Positions 26,705-30,279 are shown, counted from the first letter of the stretch. The stretch is 64,000 nucleotides of DNA from Clostridia bacterium (GCA_028684095.1 JAQUGQ010000001.1:67817-131816); one strand, 5' to 3'. The notes: generated by a model from the sequence alone, not told the origin. Program-made: numbers and translations.

Positions 26705-27736
26705 TTAATTAATTACATTAAATAGAAATTCTTTTTCTGAAGTAGCATTTTCTGAATCAGTAACTTTTACTTTTACTTTATTTGCTCCTAATGGAAAAGA
26801 GAAGTTAAATACAGAACTGTCATTTATTTTTTGAATATCATTTACATACCATTCATATTTTGTTATATACCCACCATCATTCATAGATGTAGCATTAACC
26901 AAGAACTGAAGTGTTACTGGACCAGTTATACTTCCTCCTTCACTAACTAAACTATTTATTTCTACTAAATAATTTATAACTGGCTCATAATAATTTATTA
27001 TTATCTCTTTTACTGCAATAGCAGAAACTGTTCCAAAGCTATCCATAGCTGTTACAGATATTATATTTTTTCCACGTATAAATTTTAAATTATCTCCATA
27101 CTGAAATCCTAGTAATTGAGCAACTTGAGTAGTTATCGTCCAATCTGGTCGGCTATCATCATAATTTATTGTCCAGCAATAACTAACAATAGAATTCTCT
27201 GATGGCAAATTTGTACAATGAGCTGTAGCAGTAATATTAACTAATTGAACTGGTGTAGGTGGTATAGTCTGAGGAAAAACACTAGGATTAGTAGTTATAT
27301 TATCTATAATAGGCGGTTCGGCTTCATATACTGCCGTTACTAAATTTGGTCCAGCTGAAACCCATGCAGCTTCTATTTCTATTTTTTGACCAGTAACTGA
27401 TCTTTTATATGTTAATGTATACAGATCATTTAAATTTATGTTACTTACAGGTTCTATATTTGTAAAATTATATATTGAATCTAATGATGTACCATATTTA
27501 TCAGATGATTTATAGTTATAATAATATGTTAATAGTTCAGATCCTGTTATTGTATTATTTGTAGGAGCTGATGTTGTTTCTATAATACTATCTGATGAAA
27601 CCACCTTGCCATATTCATATACTTTATCAGCAAGTGTAATCGTAGATAAAAACAAATATATTGTAATACTCGTTGCTATTATAAATACAAACACATATAC
27701 ACTTGTAACTAAAATTTCATATGCTGAATTTTCCAT
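26705..27736 (-). CDS. pilin-like protein with PKD-like repeats
   Basis: 343 aa with an N-terminal hydrophobic helix (ILVTSVYVFVFIIATSITIYLF). Repeats 'YCWTINYDDSRPDW' and 'YEWYVNDIQK...VKVKVTDSENATSEKEF' resemble PKD/Ig-like domains. Confidence 0.55.
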   Translation of the reverse strand: MENSAYEILVTSVYVFVFIIATSITIYLFLSTITLADKVYEYGKVVSSDSIIETTSAPTNNTITGSELLTYYYNYKSSDKYGTSLDSIYNFTNIEPVSNINLNDLYTLTYKRSVTGQKIEIEAAWVSAGPNLVTAVYEAEPPIIDNITTNPSVFPQTIPPTPVQLVNITATAHCTNLPSENSIVSYCWTINYDDSRPDWTITTQVAQLLGFQYGDNLKFIRGKNIISVTAMDSFGTVSAIAVKEIIINYYEPVINYLVEINSLVSEGGSITGPVTLQFLVNATSMNDGGYITKYEWYVNDIQKINDSSVFNFSFPLGANKVKVKVTDSENATSEKEFLFNVIN

Positions 27737-27745
27737 ATATTATTC

Positions 27746-28153
27746 TCACTTTCTTTTAAAAAATACTGTTACATTTTTATTATTATCAAATTCATAACGT
27801 ATAACATATAACCTATTGATCTCTAATTTGCTAGTATGTCCAACATCACCACTATCCCAAAGGTCAAGCCAAGTTTTTGTATTTATAACATCTCCTGTTT
27901 CCTCTATTTTTACTAATATCATTGTACTATTCTTATATTTTTTTGCTATATTATATACTTCAAGTCCTGTAACAGTTGGCGTTTCATCTTTTGAAAACTC
28001 TACAAATAGATCTTTTATACTAATATCGGTTTTATATACATCTTGATATATAAAAGTTAATTGATTTAAAGTAAATAATATGGCTGATGTAATGGCTAAA
28101 GACACTGTTATACCTACCCCAATAATTAATGCCTTTGTTGGCAAAAAATCCAC
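27746..28153 (-). CDS. minor pilin-like protein
   Basis: 135 aa. N-terminus MDFLPTKA-LIIGVGITVSLAITSAILF shares the [KR][AS]-[IL].IG[VA][GS] motif with the major-pilin candidate. It starts at GTG with a GAGGGG SD. Confidence 0.55.
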   Translation of the reverse strand: MDFLPTKALIIGVGITVSLAITSAILFTLNQLTFIYQDVYKTDISIKDLFVEFSKDETPTVTGLEVYNIAKKYKNSTMILVKIEETGDVINTKTWLDLWDSGDVGHTSKLEINRLYVIRYEFDNNKNVTVFFKRK

Positions 28154-28187
28154 TTTAAATCACCCCTCACTTAATTAACAAAAATTG

Positions 28188-28943
28188 TTATTGCCAAGTC
28201 TTATATTTTTCATTTTGGATTGTACATCCATAATTCACATAAACTCTCGGCATAGGCTCTGATAGCATTCCAATTGTTAAGGCATTAAAGAAAAATTCTG
28301 CAGTAGTTGTATTTATATTCTTAACTCTTATTGTATATGAATCACCCTTATTCATCGCATAAATAGGACCTAATTTATCAAATATATATATATTTGGATT
28401 TAGAGGAATATCATATTCAAGAATAGCTCCATAACTAGCTGAAGTCATACCTATACGAACAAAATTTAAATTTAAAGGTGATTCAACTATATCTTTATTT
28501 AATGCATCTAAAATATTAACTTCTGTATATATTTCTTCATTTCTAGCATAAGATAAAACTAAATTTCCATAATTCACACTATTATATAATATGTTACCAG
28601 TTAGATATTGATTTTTATATATATCATATTCAAAAGTTTCTATTAATTTTGTATGTGCAACATCATCATAAGAACAAATAACAGGATTATATATATATGA
28701 TTTGTGTTCCATTTTAATATCATAAGTATTATTAGTTACTGATAACTTTGTTAAATAATCATCATACATTTTTTTTGACAAATAACCATTATTTCTCACG
28801 TTCTCAACTAATTCAGATGTTACTTTAACAGCTAATGCATATGAAACATCATCTTTTTTTTCAAATGCAATATACATAGGTAATAGAAAAAATATTATTA
28901 CAGCTAACATTCCAGAAAATACTCTTTGTAAATTTTCTTCCAT
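28188..28943 (-). CDS. TadE-like pseudopilin-type protein
   Basis: 251 aa. MEENLQRVFSGMLAVIIFFLLPMYIAFEKKDDVSYALAV. It is a paralog of 25384-26614. GGGAGG SD. Confidence 0.55.
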   Translation of the reverse strand: MEENLQRVFSGMLAVIIFFLLPMYIAFEKKDDVSYALAVKVTSELVENVRNNGYLSKKMYDDYLTKLSVTNNTYDIKMEHKSYIYNPVICSYDDVAHTKLIETFEYDIYKNQYLTGNILYNSVNYGNLVLSYARNEEIYTEVNILDALNKDIVESPLNLNFVRIGMTSASYGAILEYDIPLNPNIYIFDKLGPIYAMNKGDSYTIRVKNINTTTAEFFFNALTIGMLSEPMPRVYVNYGCTIQNEKYKTWQ

Positions 28944-28972
28944 AATTCCTCCCTAATCTTATTTATATCCCA

Positions 28973-29404
28973 TTAAGATATTAATTGAAATGCATAATTG
29001 TTTCCATTTCTTATTATTCTAAATTTTTGATTTGGCATTATCGTTTTCATAATTGGAATATATACAACATTTTCAGAAGAATTTATTTTTGCAATACCAG
29101 GAGTTATAAGATTTAATGATGCATCAATTCTATAAGCATAATAATTATCAATAGTTATTGTTACATCAATGCTGTCATAAAAATACTGTAATACATTTCT
29201 AAGCTCAGCACCAGTTGCTTCTGAACTATATAATATTTTTTTAATATCTTCCCTGTATTGCTGTTCTATGTCAATACCTGTTCCAACTTCAGCAACCATA
29301 CTTTTTGCTGTATTATAATACATCATTATTACTGTGACAGTTGCAAGGGTAATAAGTATACTAGCACCTATAGTAATAGATCTTATCATAATATCATCTT
29401 CCAT
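28973..29404 (-). CDS. minor pilin-like protein
   Basis: The start is set at ATG 29404 (GAGGGGG SD) rather than 29455. N-terminus MEDDIMIRS-ITIGASILITLATVTVIMMYY carries the same motif as the major pilin. Confidence 0.55.
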   Translation of the reverse strand: MEDDIMIRSITIGASILITLATVTVIMMYYNTAKSMVAEVGTGIDIEQQYREDIKKILYSSEATGAELRNVLQYFYDSIDVTITIDNYYAYRIDASLNLITPGIAKINSSENVVYIPIMKTIMPNQKFRIIRNGNNYAFQLIS

Positions 29405-29595
29405 TGCTATTCCCCCTCTATAAAGATATATTCTTTTGAATAAAAGCAGTATCATTAATCATCTACTATTTTATATCCAATATTTATTATTCGAGTTGTG
29501 AATTATTCACTTAATTGTTTTTTAATTATATATATCATTATCTATTCTTTATTTTGGTATAACCGTTATAATTTATATTATAAATTACACTCTTG

Positions 29596-29645
29596 GCTAG
29601 ATATTTCTATTAAAAACTCTTAATTTTTTAATAGAAATATCTAGC
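29596..29645 (-). terminator. 21-bp perfect hairpin downstream of the major-pilin gene (terminator/attenuator or RNA-stabilising stem)
   Basis: gctagatatttctattaaaaa (29596-29616) and tttttaatagaaatatctagc (29625-29645) are exact reverse complements, with an 8-nt loop. The hairpin sits in the 254-bp gap after the pilin stop. Confidence 0.55.
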
Positions 29646-29709
29646 AATGTATATAAATATACATTGTAGATATTCGGACTATATTATTATTAATTATATA
29701 TATTAAATA

Positions 29710-30279
29710 TTATTGATATCTAATAAATGCAACACCTAAAACTGATGCTGTATCTTTTCTTCTAATTAATACAGCTCTATATTGACCTGTAGGTTCAACA
29801 TATATAGCATCACCTTTTGTACTTAATCTAGCCAAAGCTATTTTACTAGCAGATGCTATTTCAGCTACTGTAGGATCTGCAAGTTCAAAACCTGAAATAT
29901 TTGCAGCAGTAGCACCAGTAGCCGGCACTGTTGTTAATGCTGTAATTACAGTTGGAGTTGCACCAGAAGTAACAAAATTAGCTGCTCCAACATATGTGAA
30001 TGTTGCAGGTAATGTTTTGTTATTGTGTAAAGTTACAATGATTGATGGATCACTAAAATATTTATTTATAGCAACTTTAACTAATGTACCTGACATTTGA
30101 ATTTGGTCATATTGAGTTTGTAATTGAGATTGTAATTGACCAGAAATTCCACTAAGTTGACTTTGTCCTTGATTTAACAAGTCTTGACCTATGCCTGTTA
30201 TTGTCATAACGGCTGCAATAACGATGATTGTGATGAATAGTCCTACACCAATCATGATTGCTTTTTGAGCATTATCCAT
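29710..30279 (-). CDS. major pilin candidate (archaeal class-III-like N-terminus)
   Basis: 189 aa. It has the strongest SD of the locus (AAGGGGG). N-terminus is MDNAQKA-IMIGVGLFITIIVIAAVMTITG, followed by Q/S/T-rich and Ala/Thr-rich regions. A large hairpin follows. The position directly after the platform genes matches flp/pilin genes of Tad loci. Confidence 0.6.
   Translation of the reverse strand: MDNAQKAIMIGVGLFITIIVIAAVMTITGIGQDLLNQGQSQLSGISGQLQSQLQTQYDQIQMSGTLVKVAINKYFSDPSIIVTLHNNKTLPATFTYVGAANFVTSGATPTVITALTTVPATGATAANISGFELADPTVAEIASASKIALARLSTKGDAIYVEPTGQYRAVLIRRKDTASVLGVAFIRYQ

Follow-up and report, generated by a model that had tools for sequence, protein, structure and literature searches.

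On balance, three small proteins encoded in the window (the whole 64,000-nucleotide stretch of Clostridia DNA that was analysed), pilins A, B and D, and probably a fourth, protein E, appear to build a divergent Tad-like pilus, related to type IVc, in monoderm TANB77 bacteria, with A as the major subunit and the others as minor ones. The preliminary description had called them pilin candidates, and a place as pilin-like components of a type IV filament machine is supported both by their architecture of leader, helix and head and by their clustering with genes for a CpaF-like ATPase and a platform. The locus had already been published, as the TANB77 "pilus gene cluster" (Kim et al. 2024, Nat Commun 15:10726; proteins 927-938), which is kept in about 95% of TANB77 species, uncultured gut Clostridia. 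The relatives of the window are "Clostridium sp. CAG" and other Clostridia MAGs, the same kind of genomes as in that study. Kim et al. 2024 reported no or few homologues of the cluster proteins beyond TANB77 among gut genomes; the present analysis found the cluster in Bacillus salitolerans as well as in cultured Paenibacillus. The text of Kim et al. 2024 has 0 occurrences of "prepilin" or "peptidase", and a leader and a cleavage motif are absent from it as well. New with respect to that work are the definition of the N-terminal motif and the presence of the cluster outside TANB77, in Paenibacillus and Bacillus.

The gene order, CpaB, two TadZ genes, ATPase, platform and then the pilin-like genes, is syntenic across about 75 species (all features described here lie on the minus strand). 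The first gene of the cluster (35867..36988), syntenic in 75 loci, encodes a CpaB/RcpC-like protein with one TM helix and a SAF domain (Pfam SAF, E = 2.8e-7, above the Pfam threshold); its CpaB-like label is that of Kim et al. 2024. The same study gives a structural match to TadZ for the following ParA/MinD-type protein (TadZ-like protein 1, 35140..35853) and describes the next one (TadZ/CpaE-like protein 2, 34321..35136) as CpaE-like. Both are conserved in 75 loci, and no Pfam family passed its threshold for either of them in the Pfam search. The membrane-anchored CpaF/TadA-like assembly ATPase (32402..34294) likely starts at the ATG at 34294, which is preceded by an SD sequence; the ORF caller instead takes a TTG at 34312. 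A search of the PDB with the ATPase family profile matched CpaF over about 270 residues (E = 4.5e-7) and the archaeal GspE-like 2oap with E = 0.035. The ATPase is 70-92% identical across the clade and scores 15.8 bits against Pfam T2SSE (cut-off 24.9), the NCBIfam TadA models being likewise sub-threshold.

The platform gene is split in two in the window (first part 31690..32397, second part 30339..31592), as seen from phmmer matches of both parts to fused proteins; in most relatives the parts form one protein of about 686 aa (phmmer, 79 loci). No Pfam match was obtained for the platform proteins, T2SSF included, and Kim et al. 2024 describe the halves as TadC/TadB-like. The TadZ and TadB/C assignments and the platform homology rest on the structural comparison in that study. 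Within the Tad component set of the locus, CpaF is the best solved relative of the ATPase and SAF passes Pfam, the other Pfam Tad models being sub-threshold.

All four pilin-like reading frames of the preliminary description are present at their coordinates, on the minus strand and with the N-termini that had been claimed. Pilin A, the candidate major subunit (29710..30279), begins with MDNAQKA/IMIGVGLFITIIVIAAV... (the slash marks the putative cleavage site) and was characterized by homologue alignment and an AF2 model. The minor pilins B (28973..29404; MEDDIMIRS/ITIGASILITL...; 71 loci) and D (27746..28153; MDFLPTKA/LIIGVGITVSL..., with a GTG start; 75 loci) were assigned by hhalign against A. 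Protein E (26705..27736) combines a pilin-like helix with an acidic leader and a C-terminal extension, which gives weak PKD/Ig-like matches (K319L-like_PKD is faint and sub-threshold in Pfam). SD sequences lie upstream of the ATG of pilin A (30279), the ATG of pilin B at 29404 (rather than one further upstream at 29455) and the GTG of pilin D (28153); the G-rich SD-like block at -13 to -9 before pilin A is kept across 79 unique upstream sequences.

Profile alignment of pilin A matched D with a probability of 99% (E = 7e-18, 80 columns), and B with 98% (E = 2e-13, 87 columns). Its match to E (87%, E = 4e-6) reaches no further than the N-terminal 31 columns. In these alignments the dipeptides K-A (A), R-A (B), K-A (D) and E-A (E) occupy coinciding columns. 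On the strength of these profiles, pilins A, B and D are paralogues whose similarity is far above chance, covers the helix and reaches into the beginning of the head. Protein E had been described as similar in its helix without the basic residue, and this agrees with a match confined to the helix and with position -2 being mostly E or D.

Pilin A has 802 homologues at E<=0.001, and none of the best 120 of these 802 carries a functional name; a separate search gave 964 clusters at 50% identity. Across 112 aligned sequences the first ~30 residues are essentially invariant, the middle is hypervariable and the C-terminal strand is conserved. The AF2 model (pLDDT 85.8) predicts a helix from residue 2 to 57 and a small alpha/beta head in a lollipop shape, which together with this conservation pattern makes up the hallmarks of a major pilin. 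The short leader runs directly into about 20 uncharged residues, the N-terminal half of the long predicted helix, and the globular head follows. At about 56 residues, the predicted helix is probably nearer to the length found in type IVa pilins than to that of archaeal pilins.

Pilins A, B and D share a leader of 7-9 residues, then [K/R]-Ala, [I/L]-x-I-[G/A]-V and about 20 uncharged residues. A common [KR][AS] followed by a hydrophobic stretch had been noticed previously, and the pattern is real by both hhalign and column counts from the family alignments (n = 112 for A, 29 for B, 29 for D and 27 for E). All 112 sequences of family A have Lys at -2, Ala at -1, Gly at +4 and Val at +5. In family B, 28/29 have Arg or Lys at -2 and 28/29 have Ala at -1, the sole Ser at -1 belonging to the protein from the window, so that -1 is Gly, Ala or Ser throughout both families. 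Lys or Arg at -2 and Ala at -1 are each found in 26/29 members of family D, the other three having Val or Thr at -1. Family E has Glu or Asp at -2 (21/27) and Ala at -1 (22/27), with Leu at -1 in 3/27; the protein from the window has Ile at this position. Position +4 is Gly or Ala in every sequence of the four families, and is therefore more strictly kept than -1. The leader is 7 aa long in A and 8 in D, whereas B mostly has 8-9 aa; the net charge is neutral to -3 rather than basic. In all N-termini the uncharged stretch begins right after the site, at a fixed distance from the start. The seven leader residues of pilin A are all invariant while their codons vary synonymously, so that the selection acts on the protein. 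Elsewhere in the genome, many other proteins have K-G followed by a pilin-like N-terminus.

Position +5 is Val, Ala or Ile, and Asp and Glu are absent from it in families A, B, D and E. For this reason the core of the bacterial PilFind rule ([GAS]-x4-[DE] followed by >=14 uncharged residues; PMC3244431) is found in 0/234 unique N-termini from these families (about 75 species), bearing out the earlier statement that both Glu at +5 and the Flp "EY" are missing. Likewise, the proposed lack of Flp and type IVa signatures holds for the Pfam models N_methyl, Flp_Fap and TadE. N_methyl (PF07963) gave no match at E<=1 with whole proteins or at E<=10 with N-terminal fragments, and neither Flp_Fap nor EY was found in the pilins, which at 135-189 aa or more exceed the roughly 50-80 aa of Flp peptides.

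The remaining genes of the cluster were also analyzed. Protein C (28188..28943) has an N-terminal TM helix with a conserved Pro (..FFLLPMYIAFEKKDD..) and lacks the [K/R]-A motif; it is a paralogue of protein F (25384..26614; phmmer C vs F, E = 2.9e-26), which has an SD sequence before its ATG at 26614. In the window, F is split by a frameshift, owing to an additional A in AAACAAAC near 26470, and it is a single ORF in relatives. We infer that its family probably corresponds to protein 938 of Kim et al. 2024, the N-terminal quarter of which is TadE/PilV-like. Protein G (24074..25273; conserved in 65 loci), with the N-terminus M(K/R)ITDFALIFIG..LPIII and a Cys-rich tail at its end, looks TadE-like by eye only and has no Pfam family. 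At the cluster's end lies protein H (22524..23924), conserved and often duplicated (58 loci), with a cytoplasmic N-terminus rich in Lys, a single TM helix and a domain outside the cell.

In the mechanism that we favor, the leader of 7-9 residues, neutral or acidic except for one K/R at -2, would be followed by the uncharged stretch leading into a helix of >50 residues, and the protein would insert into the membrane with its N-terminus inside. The leader would most likely be cut after the conserved Ala (A7/I8 in pilin A) by an A24-family peptidase encoded elsewhere. Lifting the subunit from the membrane and polymerizing it would then fall to the TadB/C-like platform, together with the membrane-anchored CpaF-like ATPase, both TadZ-like proteins and the CpaB-like protein. 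Packing in the filament core would probably rely on the conserved small side chains at -1 (A), +4 (G/A) and +6 (G). Since +5 is Val, the salt bridge between Glu5 and the N-terminal amine of bacterial type IV pili could not be used.

No A24 peptidase was found in the window, in 10 kb beyond each of its ends, or in 88 loci (1.65 Mb, about 75 species), and no TadV/CpaA peptidase lies within about 10 kb of a pilin gene in the fetched loci, Paenibacillus and Bacillus included. We therefore treat cleavage and its site, the peptidase and also the filament as putative. Prepilin peptidases are often unlinked and common to several systems, and every characterized type IV filament needs leader removal (PMC6668835). 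In favor of cleavage, the Paenibacillus and Bacillus relatives have Ala or Gly at -1, the only two that prepilin peptidases accept, although the positions around it drift, the basic residue being shifted to -3 or +2 in Paenibacillus. The missing linked A24 gene, the non-basic leaders, the non-small residues at -1 in some D and E members, a second small pilin without the motif in the Paenibacillus and Bacillus loci, and the lack of a match to known prepilin Pfam models, solved pilin sequences or pilin folds run against a Tad-like pilus with cleavage.

It is possible, if doubtful, that the leader is retained, and that Ala at -1, Gly/Ala at +4 and Gly at +6 form a small-xxx-small helix-packing motif in proteins that assemble, or are just anchored, with the leader on. 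A packing role is conceivable for the conserved Ala because -1 is sometimes not small, as in some D and E members including protein E of the window, and +4 is always G/A. The lack of an A24 gene at the loci of about 75 species and of Paenibacillus and Bacillus, the acidic leaders, and the invariance of all seven leader residues in pilin A, which seems excessive for a peptide that is discarded, point the same way. However, the type IV filaments characterized to date all depend on removal, and type IVa leaders show similar conservation yet are removed (PMC6370729). Retention is also at odds with the Ala, Gly or Ser at -1 in nearly all A, B and D sequences, with the exchange of Ala and Gly there in distant relatives, and with a site that always directly precedes the uncharged stretch at a constant distance from the start.

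Rather unlikely, in our estimate, is a Bacillota-wide family (TANB77, Paenibacillus, Bacillus salitolerans) that forms a distinct branch of type IV filaments with unconventionally matured, Glu5-less pilins, the leader being either retained or removed by something other than a linked peptidase of the TadV/PilD type; such a branch could keep archaeal-like traits of a Tad ancestor.

The preliminary description likened these N-termini to archaeal class III signals. Reviews list a charged -2, G/A/S at -1 and a dispensable Glu5 as archaeal-specific traits (PMC4371748, PMC3387779), with sites such as KA/IS in UpsA, RA/LS in AapA/B and DA/VS in Haloferax PilA1 (PMC4371748). By column counts, A, B and D have a charged -2, G/A/S at -1 and a hydrophobic stretch without Glu5, the FlaFind-type rules being taken as worded in these two reviews. 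The likeness therefore stands for the -2/-1/+5 pattern, but not as a trait exclusive to archaea: in Streptococcus pneumoniae, ComGC, ComGD and ComGE have K-A/F and ComGF has VKA/GVLLY without Glu5, and the leader MNAQKG of the type IVa pilin PilA of Acinetobacter is almost the same as MDNAQKA (PMC6370729). Nor did the first residues match archaeal pilin models. The archaeal pilin and archaellin models of Pfam gave no match for whole proteins or N-terminal fragments (the latter at E<=10), and searches of all PDB sequences with the pilin and N-terminal profiles found no filament subunit at E<=10. Foldseek returned no pilin fold and nothing with E<0.8. The pilins thus match no prepilin Pfam model, solved pilin sequence or fold.

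We regard it as quite improbable that the pilins and a peptidase, or the whole system, came recently from archaea and that the pilins are class III substrates of a FlaK/PibD/EppA-like enzyme. The fit to the archaeal rules, the proposed derivation of Tad systems from an archaeal Epd-like system (PMC6668835) and the platform, which most members, like many archaeal systems, make as one long fusion, would favor such an origin. On the other hand, the ATPase is nearest to bacterial CpaF and not to archaeal ATPases, bacterial Tad loci typically have CpaB-like and TadZ-like genes, bacterial Com systems also show K-A sites and pilins without Glu5, archaeal models and solved sequences do not match, and all fetched loci and source names are from Bacillota (Clostridia MAGs, Paenibacillus, Bacillus). 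Least credible of all is a cut behind the hydrophobic stretch, as in ordinary Sec or lipoprotein signals, or a role as parts of ABC-transporter permeases, as suggested by Kim et al. 2024, who list a "signal peptide" in one protein and a lipoprotein profile in a second, by the RefSeq name "ABC transporter permease" for Paenibacillus homologues and by faint MacB_PCD matches; the hydrophobic stretch is the most conserved part and belongs to one helix to residue 57 (AF2), pilin A has no Cys and hence no lipobox, MacB_PCD is far below threshold (best E 0.0065), and the conserved cluster is Tad-like without an ABC ATPase or permease pair.

Compared with archaeal class III signals, the TANB77 pilins, as the favored subunits of a Tad-like pilus, are alike in their short leader, charged -2, Ala at -1, I/L/V at +1 and lack of Glu5; they differ in their bacterial host and Tad-like machinery and do not match archaeal pilins by profile, sequence or fold. 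Streptococcal Com pilins resemble them in the K-A sites, the Glu5-less ComGF and a monoderm Bacillota host, whereas the Com major pilins keep F+1 and E+5, the Com machinery is ComGA/ComGB instead of CpaF/TadBC, and Com and type IVa pilins have no detectable sequence similarity to them past the leader. Tad/Flp (type IVc) systems share the CpaF-nearest ATPase, the CpaB-, TadZ- and TadB/C-like parts, the one ATPase and the single locus. They differ in that Flp peptides are about 60 aa long with G/xxxxEY, in contrast to TANB77 pilins of 135-190 aa with a folded head and no such motif; the TANB77 ATPase is extended by a TM anchor at its N-terminus and by an additional domain of about 280 aa, and all Pfam Tad models are sub-threshold for proteins of the TANB77 locus other than the SAF-domain protein. 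Imam et al. 2011 described clostridial tad-like "no Flp" loci in which no encoded protein has (A/G)x4(D/E); these contain tadV, unlike the TANB77 locus. The window differs from the cluster of Kim et al. in its split platform gene and frameshifted gene F, and shares with it the CpaB-, TadZ-, CpaE- and TadA/CpaF-like genes, the TadC/TadB-like platform (fused there) and the series of single-TM pilin-like proteins.

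The window is AT-rich (about 27% G+C) and carries a single co-oriented cluster on the minus strand, running from 36988 down to about 22500. It opens with a gene for a SAF-domain CpaB-like protein, followed by two ParA-like proteins without a Pfam family, an ATPase of 630 amino acid residues with an N-terminal TM helix, two polytopic membrane proteins that form the platform (235 and 417 residues; 30339-32397) and then proteins A to H, each of which begins with a single hydrophobic helix: A (29710-30279), B (28973-29404, internal ATG start), C (28188-28943), D (27746-28153, GTG start), E (26705-27736), F (25384-26614, frameshifted), G (24074-25273) and H (22524-23924), all on the minus strand. 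The four open reading frames and N-termini reported in the preliminary description (A, B, D and E) are exact as quoted there, and Shine-Dalgarno sequences back its choice of start codons (for B an internal ATG, for D a GTG). Promoter and terminator matches around the pilin genes were no more numerous than in shuffled sequence. Synteny extends over the entire cluster in about 75 species-level genomes. Related genomes include those named "Clostridium sp. CAG:465/921/1219", which we take to belong to TANB77 in GTDB, as well as gut Clostridia MAGs.

By gene content and order, this cluster is the TANB77 "pilus gene cluster", which is conserved in 122 of 129 TANB77 species (PMC11680825). Structure comparison by Kim et al. 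identified CpaB, TadZ, CpaE, TadA/CpaF and a fused TadC/TadB together with seven pilin-like proteins; pilin-like protein 938 stimulated dendritic cells via TLR4 and improved anti-PD-1 responses in mice, and the paper makes no mention of a prepilin peptidase or a processing motif (PMC11680825). Of the clade's molecular features, only the pilus has so far been tied to its association with checkpoint-blockade response (Kim et al. 2024, PMC11680825). The Tad-like pilus cluster itself is already known from a recent publication, and what is new here is the definition and breadth of the N-terminal motif, the lack of a locus-linked peptidase and of a family model, and the presence of the system in cultured Paenibacillus. 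Single-sequence Pfam and NCBIfam matches of the ATPase to T2SSE and TadA stayed below threshold. Among solved structures, its family profile matches the Tad ATPase CpaF best (E=4.5e-7; the alignment of about 270 residues covers the Walker A, Walker B and His-box regions), followed by an archaeal GspE-like ATPase (E=0.035) and VirB11 (E=0.09). By this comparison, the motor is nearest to bacterial CpaF.

Pilin A has 802 database homologues. In 112 of them that were aligned, the first 30 residues are essentially invariant, the middle is hypervariable and the C-terminal strand is conserved. Comparison of family profiles with hhalign matched A to D (probability 99%, E=7e-18, 80 columns) and A to B (probability 98%, E=2e-13, 87 columns), so that the N-terminal resemblance of A, B and D claimed initially is beyond chance. 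Pairwise BLASTP between the A, B and D proteins of the window is weak (E=0.004 or worse); their homology is clear only at the profile level. The match of A to E (probability 87%, E=4e-6) is confined to the N-terminal 31 columns. C and F are paralogues of each other, while G and H each stand alone. AF2 models pilin A with confidence (pLDDT 85.8) as a lollipop: residues 2-57 form one helix, which is followed by a short strand, another helix and a small sheet.

The N-termini share a common pattern around the putative cleavage site that follows the leader (MDNAQKA in pilin A). In aligned family columns, position -2 is K/R in 112/112 A, 28/29 B and 26/29 D sequences, and position -1 is Ala in the same proportions, the lone Ser among the 29 B sequences being that of the window's own B. 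Position +1 is I/L/V, position +4 is G/A in every sequence of families A, B, D and E, and position +5 is Val, Ala or Ile in these families, never Asp or Glu. Accordingly, the bacterial PilFind core [GAS]x4[DE] (PMC3244431) occurs in 0/234 unique N-termini, in agreement with the absence of Glu at +5 noticed earlier. E, described at the outset as lacking the basic residue, indeed belongs to a family with an acidic residue (E/D) at -2 in 21/27 sequences and Ala at -1 in 22/27 (Ile at -1 in the window's own E). Leaders are 7 residues long in A and mostly 8-9 in B and D, with a net charge of 0 to -3. Codons of the pilin A leader vary synonymously (AAC/AAT at N3, AAA/AAG at K6, three or four codons each at A4 and A7), which shows that MDNAQKA is held invariant by selection on the protein. 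Taken together, these alignments define a conserved [K/R]-Ala motif of putative processing type in TANB77 pilins; it is non-canonical, lacks Glu5 and, as a sequence pattern, differs from all bacterial pilin rules.

Several genes of the cluster vary between genomes. The platform protein is split in two in the window and in its closest relatives (L004, L005, L008 and L009) and is a single protein of about 686 residues elsewhere, including Paenibacillus. Gene F (span 25384-26632, minus strand) is split near 26470 by an extra A in AAACAAAC, resulting in ORFs of 66 and 363 residues, and family F in relatives is one ORF of 420-700 residues; this may point to a pseudogene, to a phase-variable run or to an assembly error in the MAG. 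The "pilin 938" tested by Kim et al. is probably, by an indirect mapping, the counterpart of family F. Dockerin_1 domains are present on the homologues of C and F in a TANB77 genome from the Hadza gut (L001, 11143-12126 and 13092-14375), and another genome, L004 (11080-12570 and 12994-15150), has ALK_LTK_GRD glycine-rich domains on its homologues of C and E. These accessory domains suggest that the minor pilins are modular and display differing adhesive or scaffold modules.

A prepilin peptidase of the A24 family would be expected to remove the leader. Pfam scans or precomputed Pfam lists covering every gene of the window revealed no A24-like gene, nor was there one in the 10 kb beyond each window end. 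A search of 1.65 Mb from 88 related loci, using the regular expression G-x-[GAS]-D-x-K in multi-TM ORFs and phmmer with approximate ComC/PilD queries, was also negative, although weakly so, given the approximate queries. A multi-TM gene in L084, a locus from another genome, was rejected as a candidate, as it encodes a GGDEF protein. Unlinked, shared prepilin peptidases are common (PMC6668835), and the genome of the window has a large protein family in which K-G precedes a pilin-like N-terminus; it is therefore plausible that the processing enzyme is encoded away from the locus. Alternatively, the N-terminus might be conserved as an uncleaved anchor or for helix packing. We keep this explanation alive, since G/A at +4 is conserved more strictly than -1, some members of D and E have a bulky residue at -1, and the leaders are acidic; clostridial tad-like loci whose proteins have no recognizable prepilin motif were noted earlier (Imam et al. 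2011).

The K-G proteins form a second class of pilin-like N-termini (K-G/ISLIVLVITIIVIIILAGAV, the slash marking the putative site), found in the window at 3986-5476, 43436-44716, 44872-46155 (minus strand) and 40934-43114 (minus strand). They align with the canonical GFTLIELLVV... with Val at +5, and are fused to a SUMF1/FGE-sulfatase-like domain, the 726-residue protein also containing DUF4434. This class has 4567 homologues, including about 20 paralogues in one related MAG, and some are named PilE or PulG by JGI. A pilin-A-type protein, P0206, has the same C-terminal domain. Elsewhere in the window, a lone VirD4/TraG-type coupling-protein homologue of 838 residues (T4SS-DNA_transf, TraG-D_C; 12467-14983, plus strand) adjoins secA, with no other conjugation genes within the window. 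Two tandem paralogues (38638-39498 and 39884-40819, minus strand) beginning MECNCSENSLDR and MECSCSQNCLDR, with a Cys-rich N-terminus and no Pfam family, sit between a D-Ala-D-Ala carboxypeptidase gene and polysaccharide genes.

An exhaustive profile search with pilin A returned 964 clusters at 50% identity, among which the matches listed are close relatives only (E<=1e-16). Divergent pilin A members are surrounded by the same locus in a 38% G+C Bacillota MAG (L084), many cultured Paenibacillus species and Bacillus salitolerans. The Paenibacillus and Bacillus loci are compact, comprising a CpaB-like protein, two TadZ-like proteins, the ATPase, a fused platform, pilin A, one small pilin without the motif, a C-like and a G-like protein. 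Pilin A N-termini of these loci (MNNAQRA/LLIAAG, MNNASSA/LKVAAG, MEENTGVG/IRVAAG, MEETTSKG/LTLFG and MDSAKQA/LLLGAG) indicate that -1 remains Ala or Gly, and that the basic residue can occur at -2, -3 or +2. The Paenibacillus and Bacillus salitolerans homologues (L088 10001-10486, L089 10001-10447; P0259-P0318) are mostly named "ABC transporter permease" by NCBI/UniRef, which is also the RefSeq name for those of Paenibacillus; this is probably a misannotation spread from a faint MacB_PCD resemblance. Having the same machine in cultured Paenibacillus opens the processing question to direct genetics and mass spectrometry. A divergent pilin-A-like protein, P0244 (L087 10001-10504; MGMEEHGSKA/TNVGVSIIL), is found outside any Tad-like cluster; the neighboring genes encode a topoisomerase, a DHH protein of the RecJ type and a PDZ protein, a setting that may represent a mobile element. 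In non-TANB77 relatives (L084 12473-13558, L089 18213-19265), the pilus cluster has GGDEF diguanylate-cyclase genes next to it or nearby, and another such gene (L081 11794-12867), just outside the window, adjoins window gene 367-2136, which encodes a ParA-like protein of 589 residues without a Pfam family. These neighbors hint at c-di-GMP control.

Current family libraries are blind to TANB77-type pilins. All cluster proteins, 40 pilin A homologues and N-terminal fragments were scanned with Pfam and NCBIfam and matched no prepilin, Flp, TadE or archaeal pilin model, and no Pfam model of a prepilin N-terminus, archaeal or bacterial, was hit even at E<=10. Searches of all PDB sequences with profiles built from pilin A and from the pooled N-termini found no filament subunit, returning nothing or a PsbX helix. 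Foldseek searches of PDB with the full AF2 model and the head domain alone yielded no match at E<0.8, the best being unrelated folds. Separately, residues 1-27 of pilin A (30199-30279) show a faint Pfam match to His1_capsid, the N-terminus of an archaeal virus His1 capsid protein (E 0.013-0.07, below threshold), seen in 22/40 pilin A homologues, all with the same N-terminus.

The archaeal class III character initially proposed for these signals correctly describes the motif: families A, B and D follow the rules at -2, -1 and +5, and E is an acidic variant. G/A/S at -1 is general, a charged -2 matters specifically for archaeal peptidases, and Glu5 is near-universal in bacteria and optional in archaea (PMC4371748, PMC3387779). 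Archaeal sites include KA/IS, RA/LS, RA/VS and DA/VS (PMC4371748, PMC3387779). The motif does not by itself demonstrate archaeal ancestry or an archaeal-type enzyme: similar Com and PilA leaders speak against its being exclusive to archaea, and the lack of a model, sequence or fold match and a motor nearest to CpaF speak against homology. ComGC, ComGD and ComGE of S. pneumoniae have K-A/F sites, its ComGF (VKA/GVLLY) lacks Glu5, and the PilA leader of A. baumannii is MNAQKG (PMC6370729); beside these, the leader MDNAQKA looks no more archaeal than type IVa- or Com-like. An Epd-like system of archaea is regarded as the ancestor of Tad systems in general (PMC6668835), so the pilin motif might conceivably be an ancestral trait. 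At the level of sequence, the motif agrees with archaeal rules without being diagnostic of archaeal origin, and it is relevant to the extent to which bacteria, too, use Glu5-independent assembly, a mode typical of archaeal filaments.
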